DNA of 32,745 bases. Source: a virus. Lineage: Duplodnaviria > Heunggongvirae > Uroviricota > Caudoviricetes. The stretch lies in the IMG/VR virus record IMGVR_UViG_2531839479_000007. The stretch is one strand, 5' to 3'. Position numbers and translations under genes: made by a program. Below the pieces are notes generated by a model. The model was given only the letters and a program-made list of their open reading frames with translations. It was not told the DNA's origin and did not search any database. How positions within the stretch are numbered: the stretch's first letter is position 1; each line of letters begins with the position of its first letter. This document shows, in pieces, positions 1-25,730 of this stretch.

Positions 1-852
1 CTAGGATATCTTTCCATGACATTCTTTGAAGCGTTTTCCACTCCCGCAATGACATAAGGCATTTCTTGACATAGATTGTGGTGGACTCAAGTCAATTTCG
101 CTAAGCATCGAAAGTAATTCCTCTGCTGCAATTGCTTCTCCAATCATAACTTGAGTTAGACTTCTCATATGAATCAATAATTCTGCTACAATTTGAGATT
201 CTACAAAACTTTTAGTTTCTCCAGCGTCATTAGTAGCGGTATAGGTGACGCCACTCATATTTTCAGACAAAGCTTCAATAGCTGATTGATGGTATTGACT
301 GATAGGAGCATGCTTACTCACTACAATACCTATTACTTTATTATCTGAAGCTTTTAAAAGAGCTCCACCAGAATTTCCTGAGTTAAATGCCCCATTTACC
401 ACTAGATGTTTTTTTTGTCCCTTGGCGGTTTGGTATGAGTTAAATCCTGCTAGATAACCAACGGATAGTAACGGTGCAGGACCGTTGTATCCTAATGGGT
501 ATCCCCAAGTTGTTACTGATTCACCAACTTTAAGATCATTATCCTTAACAATACTTAGCCCACCAGTCTGGGTAATGGCAGGTCTCAGCACAGCTAAATC
601 GCGATCAGAATCTATCCATTTTTGAGAAATTGGAATCTTCTGTCCATAAGCTGAAATTGCGAAAATCTGATTTGTAGAGCATCCAGTGATAACATGCTCG
701 TTCGTTACTATTAACCCATTATCTATTAAAAAACCAGATCCTTTCGAGCCTGTCGCAGGACATATAATCATATAAACAGAATTTACTGATGAGCGTCCAA
801 CTTCACCCGTAGCGTCTAAAGTCCATTGAGTAGATATGGGGATATTGTTCAA
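1..852 (-). CDS. Trypsin-like (S1 family) serine protease with C-terminal SEC-C metal-binding motif; flanking gene outside the prophage
   Basis: 283-aa ORF; His/Asp/Ser triad contexts TNEHV, DLAVL, GNSGGAL; C-terminal CHCGSGKRFKECHGK matches the SEC-C motif; TTG start at 850-852 with AAGGAG 8 nt upstream; TAG stop at 1-3; visibly AT-rich. Confidence 0.6.
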   Translation of the reverse strand: MNNIPISTQWTLDATGEVGRSSVNSVYMIICPATGSKGSGFLIDNGLIVTNEHVITGCSTNQIFAISAYGQKIPISQKWIDSDRDLAVLRPAITQTGGLSIVKDNDLKVGESVTTWGYPLGYNGPAPLLSVGYLAGFNSYQTAKGQKKHLVVNGAFNSGNSGGALLKASDNKVIGIVVSKHAPISQYHQSAIEALSENMSGVTYTATNDAGETKSFVESQIVAELLIHMRSLTQVMIGEAIAAEELLSMLSEIDLSPPQSMSRNALCHCGSGKRFKECHGKIS

Positions 853-7913: not shown

Positions 7914-8492
7914 TCAGACTGGCAGCGGCGGCCATTCAATATCCGGAGCATCCTCCGGCTGGATGCGGCTCAGTAAAACACGGTATTTTTTCCATGCAAT
8001 GAGGTGCGTTTTTTCATCGTCGGTTGCCATCTCCAGATCAACGGAGTCCTGTAATGTCGCAACCGCAGTATTGGCCTGTTTAAGAAGCCTGTTTTTGTTG
8101 TTTTTCGCAGCCTCTGTCAATGCATTACGTGCAGCATCAGCATCATCAACCCATGTTTTACCATCCCATTTCTGCCACGGGTTTTCCGGCACAACCGGTG
8201 TTGTTCCTGCCGGATACTGACCCGGCTCGGTTATCTCCCTCTCATGACCTGTTTCGGTGTCATAGACAACCTCACCCCGGTGGTCTTCAGTGATAGCCCA
8301 GCAACCATTTTCAGTGTCATAAACCGGAATAAATCCGTCTCGGGTTTCCGGGGGCTTTTCACTGGTGCAGCAGGCGGGCAATCCGGTAAATGCCGGTATC
8401 AGGGCGTCACCTTTTCCAATAAATTCACAGGTGTCTGCACGAAAGTTATACACAGTGATAGTCCGGCTTTCTCCGGTCATTTTAAACGTCAT
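7914..8492 (-). CDS. G: Tail fiber assembly protein G (Tfa-like chaperone)
   Basis: 192 aa; C-terminal ...LIAWKKYRVLLSRIQPEDAPDIEWPPLPV is typical of tail fiber assembly proteins; ATG overlaps H stop (TAATG at 8490-8494). Confidence 0.85.
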   Translation of the reverse strand: MTFKMTGESRTITVYNFRADTCEFIGKGDALIPAFTGLPACCTSEKPPETRDGFIPVYDTENGCWAITEDHRGEVVYDTETGHEREITEPGQYPAGTTPVVPENPWQKWDGKTWVDDADAARNALTEAAKNNKNRLLKQANTAVATLQDSVDLEMATDDEKTHLIAWKKYRVLLSRIQPEDAPDIEWPPLPV

Positions 8493-10177
8493 TATGCGAG
8501 TCTCACGATATAGTTAAATGCGATGTTTTTGATGGTGTTTTCTGCATTACCCGACGCGGCGATCGTAATGGTGTGACCGTGTGCGCCAATAGCAACGGAG
8601 TGCGAGTGTGCGCCAATCCCGACATTATGATTGTGGGCACCAATCGCCACGGTATGCGCGTGATTACCTGCAGTTGATGTTGTTTTCGTTCCCGTCGCTA
8701 TTTCGTTACCGTCGGCGGCCTGTCCCCCGGCCTGATCTCCCCGGTGTACGGTAAAAGTGTGCGCATGGTTGCCGGTTGCATTAGTGGTTTTTGTCCCGTA
8801 GTCAAAGGTCGTGGTGGTTTTCGTTCCGTGGTCAAAAGCACTGGTGGTTTTCGTCCCTAAATCGGTGCTCGATGCGCTGGCACCGTGGGCGTGCGATTTA
8901 ATGCCGTCCTGCTCCTGAGACAAAATAGCGCGCCCACTTGCGGGTTTACCTTTGATTGTCCAGCCCCGCATATCAGGAATAACACCCGATGGGTACACCA
9001 CAGCAAGCAGCGGATACGCGGCTTTATCAAAAGTTTGTCCCTGCATGACGGCATAGCCAGCAGGAACACTGTCAGACGGCCACGCAACGGGAGCGCCTAC
9101 CGGAAAAACATCATCAGGCGTCCACGGTGTCCATGCGCCTGTTGAATACTGACTGCGCGAGTAGCTCCGGGAGCTGTTATAAACCCGGTATACCTGAGTC
9201 ACTCCGGCATTTTTATAAATGACCAGCGTCCCGGCGTTATTTTCAGGGTAATGTCTGGCGGCTGAGGTATTAGAATTCGCTGGCTGAAAGTAAATACCCG
9301 GCGTTTTAAGGGTGTCTAAATCCTCCGTTACCAGCCCAATAGCCTGACCGTCGAAAATATCCTTCGAGGTGACACTGGTGTCAGCATTCAGGGAATGTCC
9401 GTTAATTTTACGCGTGGAGGGAACGCGGCCATTAGCATTATCATTCGCCACTTTGACCGCTTTCGGTGTCGCAGCAAGCACCTCAGACACGCTGTCGGTG
9501 GCGCTACTGAGCTGGACAATCCCCTTCTGTGCCGTGGTCGCGTCCTGAGCCGTATATTTACCTTTCGCAAGGTCATACGCCACCTTGACCGCTTTCGGCG
9601 TTGCGGCGAGCGCCTCAGACGTGCTGTCGGTCGCACTGCTTAACTGCGTGAACCCTTTTTCTTTCAGCGTGGCGTCAGGATGGCGACGGGACTGCTCATG
9701 CTCTGCGAGTTTATCGTCGACATAATCCTGCGTCGCCATCACCAGTGTCGTATCGATGGACAGCTCGACGGTGTCGATATCGCTCACCATGATCACCATG
9801 CGCAGCGTCTGTGCGCGGCCTGACCCTTCCGCCAGTTCGGGCTTATAACTTTCGGCCATATTGCCGACCGCAATCAGCGTGCCGGTGTCATCGTAAAGCC
9901 CCATTTCACGCAGCCAGAAACCGCCGGTCTCCGGGGGGATCACCAGCTCCGCCACGACATAATTTTTATGTTTTTTGTCCAGGCTGATTTTGTTCAGCGC
10001 ATGGCGCCAGACCTCATTGACGAGTTTTGTCTGACTGGCGTCTGGTTCGGGCAGCTTACCGCCACCGTCCCCGACGGCCATCACCGCAAAATTGACTTTT
10101 TTCCCGTTCGGGAGCGTCGCCGCCGCCAGTTTTTCCGCACCGGCTCGGGTGATAACGGTTTTATATTTCACTGTCAT
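8492..10177 (-). CDS. H: Tail fiber protein H: conserved P2-like N-terminal shaft, divergent His-rich C-terminal tip
   Basis: 561 aa; N-terminus [20 protein letters not shown]... and repeated [23 protein letters not shown] motif as in P2 gpH; C-terminal HxH repeats (HAH, HNH, HSH, HGH). Confidence 0.9.
9448..9655 (-). repeat. Intragenic tandem direct repeat in H (two ~76-bp units 132 bp apart) encoding the tail-fibre repeat motif
   Basis: Units at 9448-9523 and 9580-9655 align with few mismatches and encode [25 protein letters not shown] / [25 protein letters not shown]. Confidence 0.6.
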
Positions 10178-11625: not shown

Positions 11626-11976
11626 TTAACTCAGTGGAAGGGTGATAGAAAAAGGCTGGCCTGATGCCGAACGCGTGCCGGTCATATCGACGTACATCGC
11701 GCCGTCATCCTCTCCGCGTTCAAAGGTGATGGTCGACAAACTGACGCGCGGTTCCCACTTCTGGATCGCGGAGTAGCACGCGGCCATAATCTGCAGACGC
11801 AGCGCCGGGGTCTGCGGCTGGTCAATCAGTGCAGACAACAGCGAGCCATATTCGCGGCGCATGACCCGCGATCCCACCGGCGTGACCAGAATGTCGCGCA
11901 CGCTTTGCCTGATGTGCTCAACCTCAGAAATACTGAGGCCGGTCTGGCTGTTCATTCCCAGATAACGCACCGTCAT
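11626..11976 (-). CDS. W: Baseplate wedge protein W (gp25-like)
   Basis: 116 aa, gpW-like; ATG overlaps V stop (ATGA at 11973-11976). Confidence 0.9.
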   Translation of the reverse strand: MTVRYLGMNSQTGLSISEVEHIRQSVRDILVTPVGSRVMRREYGSLLSALIDQPQTPALRLQIMAACYSAIQKWEPRVSLSTITFERGEDDGAMYVDMTGTRSASGQPFSITLPLS

Positions 11977-12614
11977 TTGACCCCCTTCGTCCAGTTTCCG
12001 CCTGGCTCCACGCCACCATGATCGTGGTCATCGACCTGCACGCCATTTGAGGTAAATTTCCCGCCGGTGTGCTCGATGTTCCCCGACATCGTCCCGCCTT
12101 TTTTCACTTCGAGCGTGCCGGTTGTCAGCTTGTTGGTACACACCACCTCGGGTGTATCGAGGGTGATGCGGGTGGATGCCTTAACCAGTACCAGCGGCAC
12201 GGTGGCAGTAATGGACTCTGATGCAATGACGTCGGCAGTTTTAATACCGGACACGGTGAGCGCCCCGTTTTCGGGTTCGTACTCAATAACCGCCCCGTCA
12301 GGAAACGAGACATGCAGGGCATCGGGTGAGGCAGACGGCGCGGGATGGTCATCAGAGAAAATACCAGGCAGCACAAAGGCAGTGTCGAGTTCGCCCCCAA
12401 TGGCAAGAATGAGCACCTGCTCGCCAACGGAAGGAGCCCACCACACCCGTGAGCGACCGGCGCGACAGGTCAGCCAGTTAAGCCACGTGGTTTGCATCCC
12501 TCCGGTCTGCACACGACAAAGCCCCTCAACGGGTTCAACGTCTGTCACAACGCCGGTGCGGATAAGGTTGCGGATCGCACGAGCGATTTCCTGCAGAGAA
12601 GTTAAATTGTTCAT
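11973..12614 (-). CDS. V: Baseplate spike protein V
   Basis: Start set at MNNLTSLQEIARAIRNL (ATG 12612-12614), matching the P2 gpV N-terminus; the ORF-track start at 12716 is a longer upstream extension. Confidence 0.85.
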   Translation of the reverse strand: MNNLTSLQEIARAIRNLIRTGVVTDVEPVEGLCRVQTGGMQTTWLNWLTCRAGRSRVWWAPSVGEQVLILAIGGELDTAFVLPGIFSDDHPAPSASPDALHVSFPDGAVIEYEPENGALTVSGIKTADVIASESITATVPLVLVKASTRITLDTPEVVCTNKLTTGTLEVKKGGTMSGNIEHTGGKFTSNGVQVDDHDHGGVEPGGNWTKGVK

Positions 12615-12697
12615 GGGGAAAGGATGCCGCCGGGGAGGGGCAGCAGCAATCGAGCGGGGTTTTATGAGGGATGAAACAACAAACGGCAACTCAGACT

Positions 12698-12715
12698 TGT
12701 CATTACAGACCAACA
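12698..12715 (-). promoter_or_regulatory. Candidate Ogr-dependent late promoter element upstream of V (TGT-N12-ACA dyad)
   Basis: TGTCATTACAGACCAACA: TGT at 12698-12700 and ACA at 12713-12715 separated by 12 nt, about 90 bp upstream of the V start. Confidence 0.4.
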
Positions 12716-13003
12716 CCTCCTTTGAGGGGCTGATTGAAACCTAGTCGAACATCCAGCGTTGTTCCTTAGCTGCGTGACAATGTTTTTGAACACAGTATTG
12801 GCCAAAGCTGAGCCGAAATTGGCATCCTACGAAAAATTCGATTTCTCTAGCCAGTAGTTCGATTTTAGATTTTGTATTACCTTACTCAATGAGTTTTTGG
12901 TCAGATTTTTAACACACTCAACGCCAAAAGCGGGCGCTCACGTAAACATATCCATTTTTGCTTGAGACATATTTACTATTACAGTGAGCAGTTTATCTGT
13001 TTT

Positions 13004-13045: not shown

Positions 13046-14032
13046 TTATGGATTTGACTTCCCTGAAGTCTCTTTTTTTATTTCAAATTTCCCACCCTTG
13101 AACATGATATTCGAATCTTTGATTCCATACAAAAGCATTTCATAAGGATGGTTAATTTTTTGTTCTTTTGTAGCGATACTGGAATTCATCAATTGCAACA
13201 AAGCCACATGATGTTCACTCGCCCCTAACTCTACCATTTTGGTAGCCATGTTGCTTATCTGTTCTCGTTTTAAAAAATCTTCCCGGAGAGAAAGTAACGT
13301 TAAACTTCGTGCGTTACAAAACTTTATCATGTAAACAACAAACGCACCTAACCCAATATAGGAAAACGATAATGCTAAATAAATAGACGGTGTGGTTATT
13401 ATGTTTTGCCCAAATATAAGAAAACCCAGCAGGCCAAAAAAATAAAAAACATTCACCAAAATAAACATGTTACTCATCAGAGCCTTTGTACTTCGAGTTG
13501 CATCATATTCTTTCTCCAGATGCTCCAAAAATGATGATATTTTTATTAAATTTAACTTTTCAATTGTTTCCTTCTCTAAAATCTTGAATTGCTCACTCTC
13601 TCTAATTAATTTTTTGGTAGTGTCCTCCACTGTATCATGCAATGATTCAGTGATCGCCTCTTCAATTTTATTTTCAGAAAACACGCTTGTTAAAGCGTAA
13701 TTGGCTAATTCCTTTTGTCTTTTCTCGATTAAACTTTCGACATTTTCTCTGTACGCATCAAAATATTTTTGACCACTCTCGTTTAGCAATATTTTACGAA
13801 TATGAAATTTTATTTTCTCATCTGCCATTGGTTGGCTTTCAGTGTTACCATTCTTCTTTGTGTTATTATCTTTAGTTTCCGCATTATACCTGTCCTTGCC
13901 TGAATCAAGTAAGTTCCGTGAAATGAATTTCACCACAGGACCACGCAGAATAGCTATAGCTATTGCCATTGCAAGAATGAATGGTGAAGCATCAATAAAT
14001 GATCGCGCAAATACGAAAGAGATTTCACTCAT
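13046..14032 (-). CDS. AT-rich moron: predicted membrane protein of unknown function (N-terminal TM helix, charged central region, two further TM helices, soluble C-terminal domain)
   Basis: Start set at ATG 14030-14032 (AGGGA 8 nt upstream); hydrophobic stretches SPFILAMAIAIAIL, MFILVNVFYFFGLLGFLIFG, IYLALSFSYIGLGAFVVYMIKF; sharp drop in GC relative to V and S on either side. Confidence 0.6.
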   Translation of the reverse strand: MSEISFVFARSFIDASPFILAMAIAIAILRGPVVKFISRNLLDSGKDRYNAETKDNNTKKNGNTESQPMADEKIKFHIRKILLNESGQKYFDAYRENVESLIEKRQKELANYALTSVFSENKIEEAITESLHDTVEDTTKKLIRESEQFKILEKETIEKLNLIKISSFLEHLEKEYDATRSTKALMSNMFILVNVFYFFGLLGFLIFGQNIITTPSIYLALSFSYIGLGAFVVYMIKFCNARSLTLLSLREDFLKREQISNMATKMVELGASEHHVALLQLMNSSIATKEQKINHPYEMLLYGIKDSNIMFKGGKFEIKKETSGKSNP

Positions 14033-23058: not shown

Positions 23059-24171
23059 TTAACCAACCCTTGCTTTTTTATATGGACCACAACTCCAACT
23101 AAAGAAATTCTTACCTAACTTATACCATTTATCAGAAAGCACTGGTGTTAGGTGAGGATTATATTTTTTTAAACTTCCCTTTTGTATATATTTCAATGTA
23201 TTGCTGAGCAAATTCTCTCCAAAACCATCATAACTTACACAAGCAGCGTTGCAGCTACAACGTTTTGATTCGATATACTCACAATCATATTTTATATCAA
23301 GCTTCTTTAATATCGGACGCCAATATGCACCATGTTTTCGATCGAGTTCAAGGGCTGTTTTAAAATCAAAACCTTTTTTATGGTCAATATAAAATTTTAC
23401 TGATTCATCTACGGAGCAAAGATGCTTAAAGAAAATGAGAGATTTTTCTTTTTGTTGCAATTGACTTTGACTTCTTAATACATCTTCAATTGTCGATAAA
23501 GGAACTAGAGATTCTATTTCATGTACATCTAAAATCTCCACGAAACCTGAGCGAGTAATTTGTGAGCCCAAAAAATGTGAGCAAGTACCTCCGAATGGGG
23601 CTCCAGGATGTTTTTTGTCATTATCCACAATACAAAAAACTATCTCATTATTTTGAATTGCACGCTCGAATATATCCTTAGTACTGCCCCCACCGCCATT
23701 TAGAGCGATAAAACCCATTTCGCAGCGAGATAAGTTAATACCTTCGGCATAATGAGCCGCTATAACCTTAAAAAAATCAGAATCCAAAGGATTTTCACAT
23801 ACTATTTTCGTTTTTTGCAATTGTGCCGAGTCATTAAAATACAATGGACCACAAACAAATTTAAAAGATTCACCGATCTGAACCCATTTAAATGATTTAT
23901 CACTAATATTAAAGTCGACAGATACATAAAATGAGACCTGATCCAAGATAGCATAGTACTCTGTTAGACCCGACAAAGCCTCTTGCGCGTAACTTTTTGA
24001 TGAAAGGCTATAAAGCCCGCTTTGATCATTGATAATAGTTTTAAAAAAAACCCTTGCCCCTATAACCAAGTGTTTTTGTTCAGCGAATGCCCGAAGTATA
24101 TTTTCAACCGCTATGGCAAATGAGTTATTTAGCACCTTCTCAGGTGTCGCATTTTCGATATTAATCAACAT
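23059..24171 (-). CDS. Cargo gene 2: 370-aa partner protein of the ATPase, unknown function (possible Toprim-like E...DxD core; Cys-rich C-terminus)
   Basis: ATG at 24169-24171 only 2 nt after the ATPase TAG stop; AT-rich; ...RCEMGFIALNGGGGS...IVFCIVDNDKK... could be Toprim-like; C-terminal CEYIESKRCSCNAAC cluster. Confidence 0.6.
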   Translation of the reverse strand: MLINIENATPEKVLNNSFAIAVENILRAFAEQKHLVIGARVFFKTIINDQSGLYSLSSKSYAQEALSGLTEYYAILDQVSFYVSVDFNISDKSFKWVQIGESFKFVCGPLYFNDSAQLQKTKIVCENPLDSDFFKVIAAHYAEGINLSRCEMGFIALNGGGGSTKDIFERAIQNNEIVFCIVDNDKKHPGAPFGGTCSHFLGSQITRSGFVEILDVHEIESLVPLSTIEDVLRSQSQLQQKEKSLIFFKHLCSVDESVKFYIDHKKGFDFKTALELDRKHGAYWRPILKKLDIKYDCEYIESKRCSCNAACVSYDGFGENLLSNTLKYIQKGSLKKYNPHLTPVLSDKWYKLGKNFFSWSCGPYKKARVG

Positions 24172-24173
24172 AA

Positions 24174-25730
24174 CTACTTACCCGAGAAAAAGCCAACCGG
24201 CCAATTTTTTAGGAAACCATTCTCGTCAAAATAAGATTTCTTAACTATAGTCTGCTGCTTATCATCTTTTTCAAATACCAGTATTGAAATATCATCCTGT
24301 GAAAGACTTTCATTTTCCTCAATATATTCACCAAGTGCTTCAATCATGGTCTGGCTATGTGTCTCAAAAATTATCTTCAAATCTACATTATTTTCTTTTG
24401 CTTTAGTTACTACTTTTGCAAAAATACTTGCTAAATTATGCTGATATGACGGATGTAAATGCAATTCTGGCTGCTCAATGATAAATGTTATAGGTTTTCT
24501 AACCGTGGTAGCACGACGTTCTGTCTCAAGCCAAATGGCTGTAACTATCGGCAAAACCTGAGAATAACCAAACCCCATATCACTAACATTATAGTTCTCA
24601 CTATTTTCACCGGTGTTTATTAAAATTGCAAAGTGAGAGCCACTTTGTTCAACCTTGATAATGAAATCAAAATTTAACTTTGTCCAATCTTCAAATTTTG
24701 ATTTATCAGCCGGTCTTAATGAATTCAAAAGCATTGCAAGATTGGAACCAGTATGATCTATCTCATTAACCTGTAAATCTTGAAAACGATAAAATCTTTC
24801 TGATGTAGCACGCAGTGGAGCTATGTACTTTACATTTCTGAATGAATCTGACAAGGATGTATTTATTATATCTATAAGATTATTAATATTCCATCCAATT
24901 ATAAATGGATATAACTCATTCATTATTTCATCATGTTGAAATTCAAAGTTTCTACTAAAAACTTTTTGTTCCTTAAATAGAAAAGCAACTAATTTACTAG
25001 CGTACGCTTTGGGTATAAAGCCAATTCTTTTGAATGCCTCTGTCACTTGATTTATATCAGATTTAGTATGGAAATATTTCTTTATATATTTCGCCGCTGA
25101 ATCAATAAATGACAATTCTAACGCCCTGTCATGCCTAGAATGTCTCAAATAGAATGATGTGCTTGGAGGAGGACTGTCTTCCTTACCCTTCAAAATTAGA
25201 TTTGGTATGAACTGCCCAAGATTTTTAGCTATTATCCCATCACGCTCTATTGTTTTATCATCTGATTCAATGAGTAATTTAACATTACTACTCTCATCCA
25301 TTGAAATAAATATTGTTAAATCAGCCAATATAAGCTTAATCGTTTTCGTTTTTGTTTTTTTATCTTTAGAGTAAACAGTTAACTCTGCTTCAATATCTGT
25401 TGGTTGCTTTGCTAAATCAGTAGAACGATAATATGTATATCTTTGTGAAACCTCTGGCGGAATTGAGAGTGAAAAACTAAACGTAATTTCTTTTTTTTCA
25501 GAGTTTCGGGAAAGTACATCTGTAAAATCGCCAAAATCCACATATCTCCCATACCATAGTATTGGGCCAGTAGTATTTTCTTCTACAGATTGACGAAGTA
25601 AAGGAAATGTGCGCAATAGGGAACTTTTACCACTGCTGTTCTTACCAACAAATACTGTAATTGGTTTTAAATCAATAAACGTTTTGTTGACAAAGCTCCT
25701 GAAGTTTTGAAGACCTATACCCTTAATCAT
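24174..25730 (-). CDS. Cargo gene 1: ABC/OLD-family (AAA_15/AAA_21-like) ATPase without a C-terminal Toprim domain
   Basis: Start set at MIKGIGLQNFRSF (ATG 25728-25730, GGAG 6 nt upstream); Walker A GKNSSGKSS, Walker B/D-loop ITFIIEQPELHLHP, H-loop IIFETHS; ORF-track start at 25802 is TTG inside the cos-like sequence. Confidence 0.75.
   Translation of the reverse strand: MIKGIGLQNFRSFVNKTFIDLKPITVFVGKNSSGKSSLLRTFPLLRQSVEENTTGPILWYGRYVDFGDFTDVLSRNSEKKEITFSFSLSIPPEVSQRYTYYRSTDLAKQPTDIEAELTVYSKDKKTKTKTIKLILADLTIFISMDESSNVKLLIESDDKTIERDGIIAKNLGQFIPNLILKGKEDSPPPSTSFYLRHSRHDRALELSFIDSAAKYIKKYFHTKSDINQVTEAFKRIGFIPKAYASKLVAFLFKEQKVFSRNFEFQHDEIMNELYPFIIGWNINNLIDIINTSLSDSFRNVKYIAPLRATSERFYRFQDLQVNEIDHTGSNLAMLLNSLRPADKSKFEDWTKLNFDFIIKVEQSGSHFAILINTGENSENYNVSDMGFGYSQVLPIVTAIWLETERRATTVRKPITFIIEQPELHLHPSYQHNLASIFAKVVTKAKENNVDLKIIFETHSQTMIEALGEYIEENESLSQDDISILVFEKDDKQQTIVKKSYFDENGFLKNWPVGFFSGK

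Follow-up and report, generated by a model that had tools for sequence, protein, structure and literature searches.

Tail-fibre modularity among P2, Mu, P1, lambda and T-even phages has long been recognised, and the fibre gene of the P2-like E. coli prophage analysed here (IMG/VR record IMGVR_UViG_2531839479_000007; the window, that is, the whole stretch of DNA that was analysed, has 32,745 nucleotides) raises the question of where its histidine-rich distal end comes from and whether that end sets the receptor specificity of the phage. An earlier note, made from the letters alone, had described a P2-like shaft ending in a T4-like, metal-binding needle. The reading that best explains our results, and very probably the correct one, is that the product, H, is a mosaic P2-type fibre whose distal 205 residues form a receptor-binding tip of the T4 gp37 / lambda Stf type.

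A P2-type fibre gene with a separate distal half

The tail-fibre ORF lies at 8492-10177 on the minus strand and encodes a 561-aa protein of the P2 H type. It is intact, sits within a complete P2-type late-gene set and occurs in the order I-H-G, between baseplate and sheath genes, as in P2. The RefSeq label of the product (WP_000216933.1) reads only "phage tail protein". We divide H and the gene that follows it into these segments:

9725..10177, minus strand: H aa 1-151, P2-type N-terminal baseplate-attachment domain (Pfam PF12571 Phage_tail_fib, E 4.3e-56), inside the P2 H-like region aa 1-253
9419..9670, minus strand: H aa 170-253, two "phage tail fibre repeat" units (Pfam PF03406, two stretches, E 1.3e-35)
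9110..9418, minus strand: H aa 254-356, middle module with a knob domain (~aa 276-353; weak R2 pyocin Knob2 match; phrog_8239)
8897..9109, minus strand: H aa 357-427, collar, equivalent to T4 gp37 D10 residues 811-881 (54/71 identities to T4)
8759..8896, minus strand: H aa 428-473, descending stem strand with HxH at 429-431 and 471-473 (27/46 identities to T4 882-931)
8681..8758, minus strand: H aa 474-499, hypervariable tip loop (2/26 identities to T4 tip subdomain 932-959)
8546..8680, minus strand: H aa 500-544, ascending stem strand with four HxH at a 9-residue period (29/45 identities to T4 960-1009, with a 5-residue gap)
8495..8545, minus strand: H aa 545-561, C-terminal strand running back to the collar (15/17 identities to T4 1010-1026)
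7914..8492, minus strand: tail fibre assembly chaperone, 192 aa, lambda Tfa / T4 gp38 type (Pfam Caudo_TAP, E 4.6e-36)

Pfam thus places Phage_tail_fib at aa 1-151, two Phage_fiber_2 repeats behind it and Collar at aa 361-408. The P2-like character of the N-terminal shaft is borne out by blastp, with 76% identity between P2 H and aa 1-253 and 80% between PSP3 gp19 and aa 1-251; past aa 253, blastp aligns H with neither of the two, and the C-terminal receptor-binding region of P2 gpH is absent from H. The repeats at aa 170-253 are the last segment held in common with P2, PSP3 and Mu S (5YVQ/8JU3, matching aa 203-256 in a phmmer search of PDB sequences) and are likely to have served as a recombination linker.

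The middle module is carried by only a subset of homologs and matches phrog_8239 (1.2e-35). The knob fold of R-type pyocin fibres is a trimeric five- or six-stranded antiparallel sheet. H aa 276-353 resembles Knob2 of the R2 pyocin fibre (6CT8/6CL6) by a weak sequence match (E 7.5e-4), a likeness of sequence only, with low confidence in our AlphaFold2 model at this point.

The distal module is a homolog of the T4 gp37 tip

A phmmer search of PDB sequences aligns H aa 357-561 with 2XGF (T4 gp37 785-1026) at E 1.4e-73, and blastp gives 60% identity between the C-terminus and T4 gp37 813-1026 (E 4.5e-81). Judged by sequence, the relation of H aa 357-561 to the crystallised T4 receptor-binding tip is one of direct homology, more than analogy, and the T4-like needle tip proposed earlier is supported. 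The domain limits of gp37 (D10 collar, D11 needle) are taken from PMC6957217; in H the Collar domain (PF07484) scores 37.7 bits (cut-off 24; E 2e-9). The last 11 residues form the same ending in T4 gp37, lambda Stf and ev239. The PDB search also links H aa 357-464 to a short tail fibre, 9CUY (E 8.6e-6).

The stem departs from that of T4 in its length. The descending strand consists in part of three 10-aa (D/F)xGTKTT repeats, seen by TRF as a 30-nt period at 8784-8857, and has a 4-residue gap at the position of T4's HxH 915-917, where H carries a second FDYGTK repeat instead. A 5-residue deletion in the ascending strand matches the 4-residue one in the descending strand, making the stem about one layer shorter than that of T4. 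The module itself is mounted on a 561-aa P2-type fibre here and on the 1026-aa gp37 in T4.

An AlphaFold2 monomer of H aa 254-561, built on a 59-sequence alignment, reached only low confidence (pLDDT 50, pTM 0.20), a presumed obligate intertwined, metal-bound trimer having been modelled as a single chain. Its only significant Foldseek match in the PDB is 2xgf_A (E 4e-10), at a TM-score of 0.2-0.26 and an rmsd of 18 Å, so that this match reflects the sequence and not the predicted geometry and is not independent structural evidence.

Six conserved HxH motifs line the stem

The last 133 residues of H contain six HxH motifs, all encoded on the minus strand:

aa 428 onwards: SHAHG, HxH 429-431 (window 8885-8893)
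aa 469-474: GNHAHT, HxH 471-473 (8759-8767)
aa 504-509: GNHAHT, HxH from aa 506
aa 513-518: GAHNHN, HxH from aa 515
aa 522-527: GAHSHS, HxH from aa 524
aa 531-536: GAHGHT, HxH from aa 533

The five motif strings quoted in the earlier note are all present, but the sixth, SHAHG, had been missed. The placement of the motifs at 8492-8700, within the last ~60 residues, also needs correction: that range corresponds to aa 493-561 and holds four of them, and the five quoted span the last 93 residues. The six align with T4 HxH at 883, 929, 966, 980, 989 and 998, that is, with six of the seven in gp37. We considered whether six instead of seven motifs makes H unusual and rejected this, six being the commonest count in the family (128/237 complete modules).

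With its bias towards Gly, Ala, Thr and His, the repeat region might be a chance low-complexity tail or a functionless remnant of a decaying gene, the more so in a prophage known from genome sequence only. Composition-preserving shuffles of the whole of H reached at least six HxH in just 7 of 200,000 cases (mean 0.67), and shuffles restricted to the last 140 residues, which hold 14 of the 20 histidines of H, did so in 62 of 200,000. All 12 motif histidines are kept in 119-120 of 120 homologs, the conservation check that the earlier note had set for its reading and which leaves that reading standing; they sit among the invariant columns of the 59-sequence alignment, whereas conservation does not extend to histidines 450 and 478, which lie outside the motifs. 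In 36 E. coli genomes the cassette recurs at 99% identity or more. Together with the match to the solved structure 2XGF, the shuffles and the histidine conservation refute the chance or decayed-gene reading, to which the intact ORF and its complete late-gene surroundings are also opposed and which we regard as scarcely credible.

Apart from the 30-nt GTKTT repeat, the only repeat that TRF reported in 8400-9200 is a short one attributable to chance. No 27-nt tandem array underlies the four HxH units spaced at 9 residues, so these are not recent DNA duplications.

A probable metal-bound needle

The T4 needle holds ferrous ions at its HxH motifs, and alanine substitution of His929 and His931 is lethal (PMC6957217); octahedral Fe sites of the HxH type also occur in pyocin fibres and the P2 gpV spike (PMC6116203). 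For the H tip we infer the trimeric needle, the identity of its metal, the receptor and the chaperone requirement. By homology to 2XGF, three H chains would form the collar domain, from which a six-stranded antiparallel needle would project. Each HxH, contributed by three chains, would place six imidazoles around a single buried metal, probably Fe(II), in octahedral coordination, and six such sites stacked along the fibre would zip and stiffen the stem. Given the missing 915-917 motif and the matched 4- and 5-residue stem deletions, the number of metal sites in H is an extrapolation. At the far end the chain would turn back in the 26-residue loop aa 474-499, forming the apex and most likely the receptor contact; its partner may be either a porin in the E. 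coli outer membrane or the LPS core.

The near-absolute conservation of the motif histidines fits a ligand role, and the metal that they would bind is probably iron. The motifs could instead bind another metal, zinc or nickel, or none, packing as a histidine ladder: T4 gp12, which has the collar fold in common, was crystallised with zinc at HxH (PMC6116203), and H also matches the short tail fibre 9CUY. We consider this very unlikely. The closest solved homolog, 2XGF, holds ferrous iron at the very same motifs (PMC6957217), pyocin fibres and P2 gpV bind Fe with the same geometry, and the zinc of gp12 may be a refolding artefact (PMC6116203).

The tip and its chaperone, a probably exchanged cassette

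The gene downstream of H overlaps it, the chaperone start codon sharing the sequence TAATG with the H stop codon, and a dedicated chaperone gene likewise lies directly downstream of gp37 in T4. Full-length blastp alignments of the chaperone give 46% identity with lambda Tfa and 63% with that of ev239; identity to T4 gp38 is 26% (E 1e-14), and to P2 G only 29% over aa 57-191 of the chaperone, so that what it has in common with P2 gpG is the C-terminal portion. With the Tfa adjoining the closest tip, found in a Mu-like prophage, it has 49% identity, and it co-varies with the tip. The combination of a P2/Mu/P1-type C-terminal region with a gpG/U-type chaperone is thus not found here. The chaperone gene is translationally coupled to H, and its product would be needed for folding and trimerisation of the tip.

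That the tip was acquired by C-terminal exchange, as the earlier note had suggested, is supported at the sequence level: the P2 and PSP3 match ends at aa 253, the downstream chaperone is of the Tfa/gp38 type and co-varies with the tip, and a sister prophage has 0 differences from ours over 7914-9299 and 56 over 9300-10177, which indicates a breakpoint inside H. GC content is 0.569 in the N-terminal part of H, 0.498 in the middle module and 0.50-0.54 in the distal part, and similarity begins only at aa 340-359 in 141 of 267 homologs. Tip and chaperone move together as a cassette that recombination very probably joined to the P2-type N-terminal half.

A family on several phage chassis

The module matches 451 phage records, 1175 proteins at E<=1e-5 and 1616 clusters at 50% identity, on proteins of 214-1599 aa, and is present in T4-like, lambda-like, P1-like (JL22), Mu-like and P2-like (SEN1, ev239) phages. 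The family is already described, P2-like phages (SEN1) included, and is widely exchanged. In the T4/lambda receptor-binding-protein family as characterised earlier, the specificity region diverges and a gp38/Tfa chaperone is conserved alongside (Magaziner and Salmond, 2022, PMC9659904); this description fits H, with its last ~215 aa homologous, its specificity region divergent and its chaperone immediately downstream.

The closest parallel in architecture is SEN1_19 of Salmonella phage SEN1 (Peduoviridae, Eganvirus), with a P2-type N-terminus, a gp37-type C-terminus and a Tfa: it aligns with H over its full length at 57%, and the SEN1 Tfa is 50% identical to our chaperone. The fibre of Evevirus ev239 has a C-terminus 60% identical to that of H and an N-terminal part that does not align with it. 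The tip loops of SEN1 and ev239 differ from that of H, as do the hosts and presumably the receptors. Lambda Stf and ev239 have the same stem variant as H (FDYGTK duplicated, the 915-type HxH missing and the 5-residue deletion present), but the tip insertion of lambda Stf is much longer, with two extra HxH, and its N-terminal part is unrelated.

The same tip-plus-chaperone cassette on five phage chassis is a clean natural example of tail-fibre modularity. Little of this is new beyond a precise, structure-backed annotation of WP_000216933.1 (collar, six-site HxH needle, tip loop and cognate Tfa), and in practice it is useful only for predicting host range and for engineering, where the module boundaries at aa 253/254 and ~356/357, together with the specificity loop, mark the places to cut and swap.

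The tip loop as the probable specificity determinant

The earlier note had let the HxH tip itself define receptor specificity. The HxH stem is a conserved scaffold and not itself specificity-defining; the likelier determinant is the variable 26-residue loop. Between the second and third HxH, conservation falls to 0.16-0.24 over aa 474-499 (120 homologs), and the median identity of this loop is 15%, versus 72-74% for its flanks (237 modules). In T4 the equivalent loop is the LPS/OmpC binding surface mapped by mutagenesis (PMC6957217). The loop aa 474-499 is almost certainly what sets specificity in H, as far as sequence comparison can indicate.

Alternatively, the needle could be mainly a structural spacer, with specificity coming from the knob or from a Tfa chaperone bound to the mature fibre. 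Pyocin Knob2, which the knob of H resembles, is the most diverse region of its fibre and is believed to influence the killing spectrum (PMC6116203); for Ur-lambda and Mu, retention of the chaperones in mature virions is reported (PMC9608196), and the N-terminal half of Tfa varies along with the tip type. However, the sharpest drop in conservation inside aa 357-561, the module that the comparison covered and which lies outside the knob, is the loop, the mutagenesis in T4 points to the same place, and the knob is missing from many members, as the late onset of similarity in more than half of the homologs indicates and as in the 328-aa fibres of Mu-like prophages. We therefore judge a spacer role rather unlikely, while the pyocin knob and the virion-retained chaperones suggest that the tip loop, our preferred determinant, may not be the sole one.

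Receptors known in the family are OmpC and LPS for T4 and LPS GlcII for PhiNP (PMC6957217, PMC9659904). We considered carrying T4's OmpC/LPS specificity over to H and rejected this step, its tip loop being unrelated to that of T4 at 2/26 identities. The loop also differs from the lambda and ev239 tips and recurs, at 70-77% identity, only in the 328-aa fibres of Mu-like E. coli prophages; it could accordingly target a receptor other than the family's OmpC/LPS sites, and we tentatively raise the possibility, with some doubt, that it represents a receptor-specificity class so far uncharacterised. If so, the cassette might be used as it stands to give P2-, Mu-, lambda- or T4-based particles a new target.

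The tip loop contains an RGD tripeptide, at which the nearest tips have QGD or RGD; its occurrence is most likely a coincidence.

Tail fibre gene and HxH motifs

The window is a P2-like E. coli prophage inserted beside yegQ, with the following fibre features.

8492-10177, minus strand: H tail fibre ORF, 561 aa, HxH region at its 3' end
H aa 1-151: P2-type N-terminal fibre domain (Pfam PF12571, E 4.3e-56)
H: two 'phage tail fibre repeat' units (Pfam PF03406)
H aa 361-408: Collar domain (Pfam PF07484)
7914-8492, directly downstream of H: Tfa, tail-fibre assembly protein, 192 aa (Pfam Caudo_TAP)

The Tfa ATG overlaps the H stop codon (TAATG). In several complete E. coli chromosomes both genes (7914-10177) recur at 100% identity, with H labelled only 'phage tail protein' (WP_000216933.1).

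H contains six HxH motifs, starting at aa 429, 471, 506, 515, 524 and 533. All five motif strings quoted in an earlier note are found, and a sixth, SHAHG (from aa 428), lies upstream of them. Their placement in that note was too narrow: the five extend over 93 residues rather than the C-terminal ~60, and 8492-8700, which encodes only aa 493-561, contains only four of the motifs. Composition does not explain the pattern: at least six HxH arose in 7 of 200,000 shuffles of the whole protein, and in 62 of 200,000 when just its last 140 residues were shuffled.

Homology to the T4 needle

[quoted passage not shown] At the level of sequence, the H C-terminus is the T4 needle module itself, beyond mere resemblance. 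Identities were counted per segment using the T4 domain limits (collar D10, 811-881 and 1010-1026; stem, 882-931 and 960-1009; tip, 932-959; PMC6957217).

Identities between H and T4 gp37
Collar: 54/71
Descending stem: 27/46
Tip: 2/26
Ascending stem: 29/45
C-terminal strand: 15/17

Of the seven gp37 motifs, those at 883, 929, 966, 980, 989 and 998 align with the six in H; in place of the other, at 915-917, H has a second FDYGTK repeat. H also has a 4-residue deletion in the descending strand, matched by a 5-residue deletion in the ascending one; the same stem variant occurs in lambda Stf and in ev239, a P2-like phage. By inference, the stem would be shorter than that of T4 by about one layer and hold six metal sites instead of seven. 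The descending stem includes three 10-residue GTKTTxxFD(Y/H) units, encoded by a 30-nt tandem repeat (8784-8857, minus-strand coding, H aa ~441-465; 2.5 copies, 81% matches). In the alignment T4 carries an HxH opposite the third unit, so gain or loss of such repeats may alter the number of stem layers.

Conserved scaffold and variable tip

Of 120 homologs, 119-120 retain each of the 12 motif histidines, which fits the metal-binding role suggested for them; the region's other two histidines, 450 and 478, are not conserved. Conservation in this set falls to 0.16-0.24 over aa 477-496, and median identity across 237 complete modules is 15% in the tip and 74% and 72% in its flanks. These figures make the HxH ladder the invariant scaffold of the module and its apex loop the variable part. 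T4 has the same split: alanine scanning mapped the patches that contact LPS and OmpC to the tip subdomain, and found the iron-binding histidines next to it to be essential (PMC6957217). The proposal that a metal-binding tip sets receptor specificity is supported as to a T4-type module, but scaffold and specificity determinant are different parts of it.

Evidence for C-terminal exchange

The N-terminal part of H is P2-like, as the earlier note held: aa 1-253 are 76% identical to P2 H and 80% to PSP3, and beyond aa 253 there is no similarity to either at the DNA or protein level. Between this point and the collar boundary (aa 340-359, the first point of similarity in 141 of 267 homologs) lies a 103-residue module that only some homologs carry and whose knob domain is a weak match to Knob2 of the R2 pyocin (E 7.5e-4). 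GC content is 0.57-0.59 in the H N-terminus and genes I and J, and 0.50-0.54 in knob, tip and Tfa. Tfa similarity tracks the tip, not the chassis.

Identity to the window Tfa
ev239 Tfa: 63%
Tfa of Mu-like prophage: 49%
Lambda Tfa (full length): 46%
P2 G: 29%, only aa 57-191 of the window Tfa
T4 gp38: 26% (E 1e-14)

This pattern agrees with the modular design of Tfa proteins, which combine a variable fibre-binding N-domain with a conserved trimerising C-domain (PMC9608196).

Compared with a related prophage of strain WCHEC005784, the window has 0 differences over 7914-9299 and 56 over 9300-10177. All 56 H differences fall within aa 1-292, and the tail regions are otherwise near-identical; divergence is much higher in the baseplate genes that follow downstream of H (~83% identical). 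The two difference counts and the divergent baseplate genes point to a recent recombination breakpoint inside H. With P2 similarity ending at aa 253, Tfa following the tip, this putative breakpoint and the GC drop, the suggested C-terminal exchange is well supported.

Spread of the module

The 205-residue C-terminal module of H matches 451 phage records, 1175 proteins in a collection clustered at 90% identity and 1616 representatives at 50% identity (248 at E<=1e-30), in which it forms the C-terminal end of proteins 214-1599 aa long. Modules carry 4 to 9 HxH, most commonly six (128/237). They are found on T4-like phages, lambda (HK630, Ur-lambda Stf) and P1-like phage JL22, and the tip closest to that of H, 70-77% identical in its loop, belongs to a Mu-like prophage of E. 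coli. The P2-like SEN1 shares the overall architecture of H (57% identity over the full length), whereas ev239 has only the C-terminal part in common (60% over H aa 312-561); P2-like phages with the HxH tip module were known before. A published description of the family covers its divergent specificity region and co-conserved downstream gp38/Tfa chaperone (PMC9659904), and the H tip is an ordinary member of this large, structurally and bioinformatically characterised family.

Proposed assembly, metal and receptor

An AF2 monomer prediction of H aa 254-561 had pLDDT 50, and its Foldseek match to 2xgf_A was sequence-driven (TM-score 0.2-0.26). The tip is homologous to a solved iron-containing needle, and it has invariant histidines, a variable apex and a linked chaperone. 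Three H chains would form a collar and a six-stranded needle, in which the six imidazoles supplied by each HxH layer would bind one octahedral Fe(II). The precedents are 2XGF, the P2 gpV spike and the fibres of R-pyocins (PMC6116203). Loops of aa 474-499 from the three chains would build the receptor-binding apex, and folding of the tip would need Tfa. Within the family, T4 binds OmpC and the LPS core, and PhiNP binds LPS GlcII (PMC6957217, PMC9659904); the H loop is unrelated to characterised loops, so a receptor cannot be carried over to H by homology.

The ORF of V, the central spike protein (11973-12716, minus strand), has one HxH near its C-terminus (…VDDHDHGGV…, aa 231-233 of the listed ORF), which corresponds to the buried Fe site described at the P2 gpV apex (PMC6116203). 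With HxH in both V and H, one and the same metal-clamp motif would serve two separate trimeric proteins of the phage.

Other prophage loci

Between V and the tail-completion gene S, a 328-aa ORF (13046-14032, minus strand) without a match in Pfam or PADLOC occupies the position of the P2 non-essential orf30; the WCHEC005784 prophage has a HEPN-domain protein instead, in the adjacent slot. Directly after the portal gene, in the accessory ('old/tin') slot of P2, lies a two-gene cassette (23059-25730, minus strand), a likely candidate for an anti-phage defence system carried by the prophage. The product of its first gene, 518 aa, is an ABC-type ATPase (Pfam AAA_15, AAA_21, DUF3696; best PADLOC matches NsnB 3.7e-55, PDC-M55A 6.9e-46, AriA 3e-31); the partner from the second gene, 370 aa, lacks any Pfam domain and matched only weakly in PADLOC (PDC-M55B 2e-4). 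At the prophage end, near an ogr-like regulator and yegQ, an ORF reaching the window edge (1-852, minus strand) encodes a trypsin-like peptidase of 283 aa that carries a SEC-C motif at its C-terminus and matches in PADLOC the protease part of RT-Protease_XI (7e-21) and PDC-M35A (6e-13).
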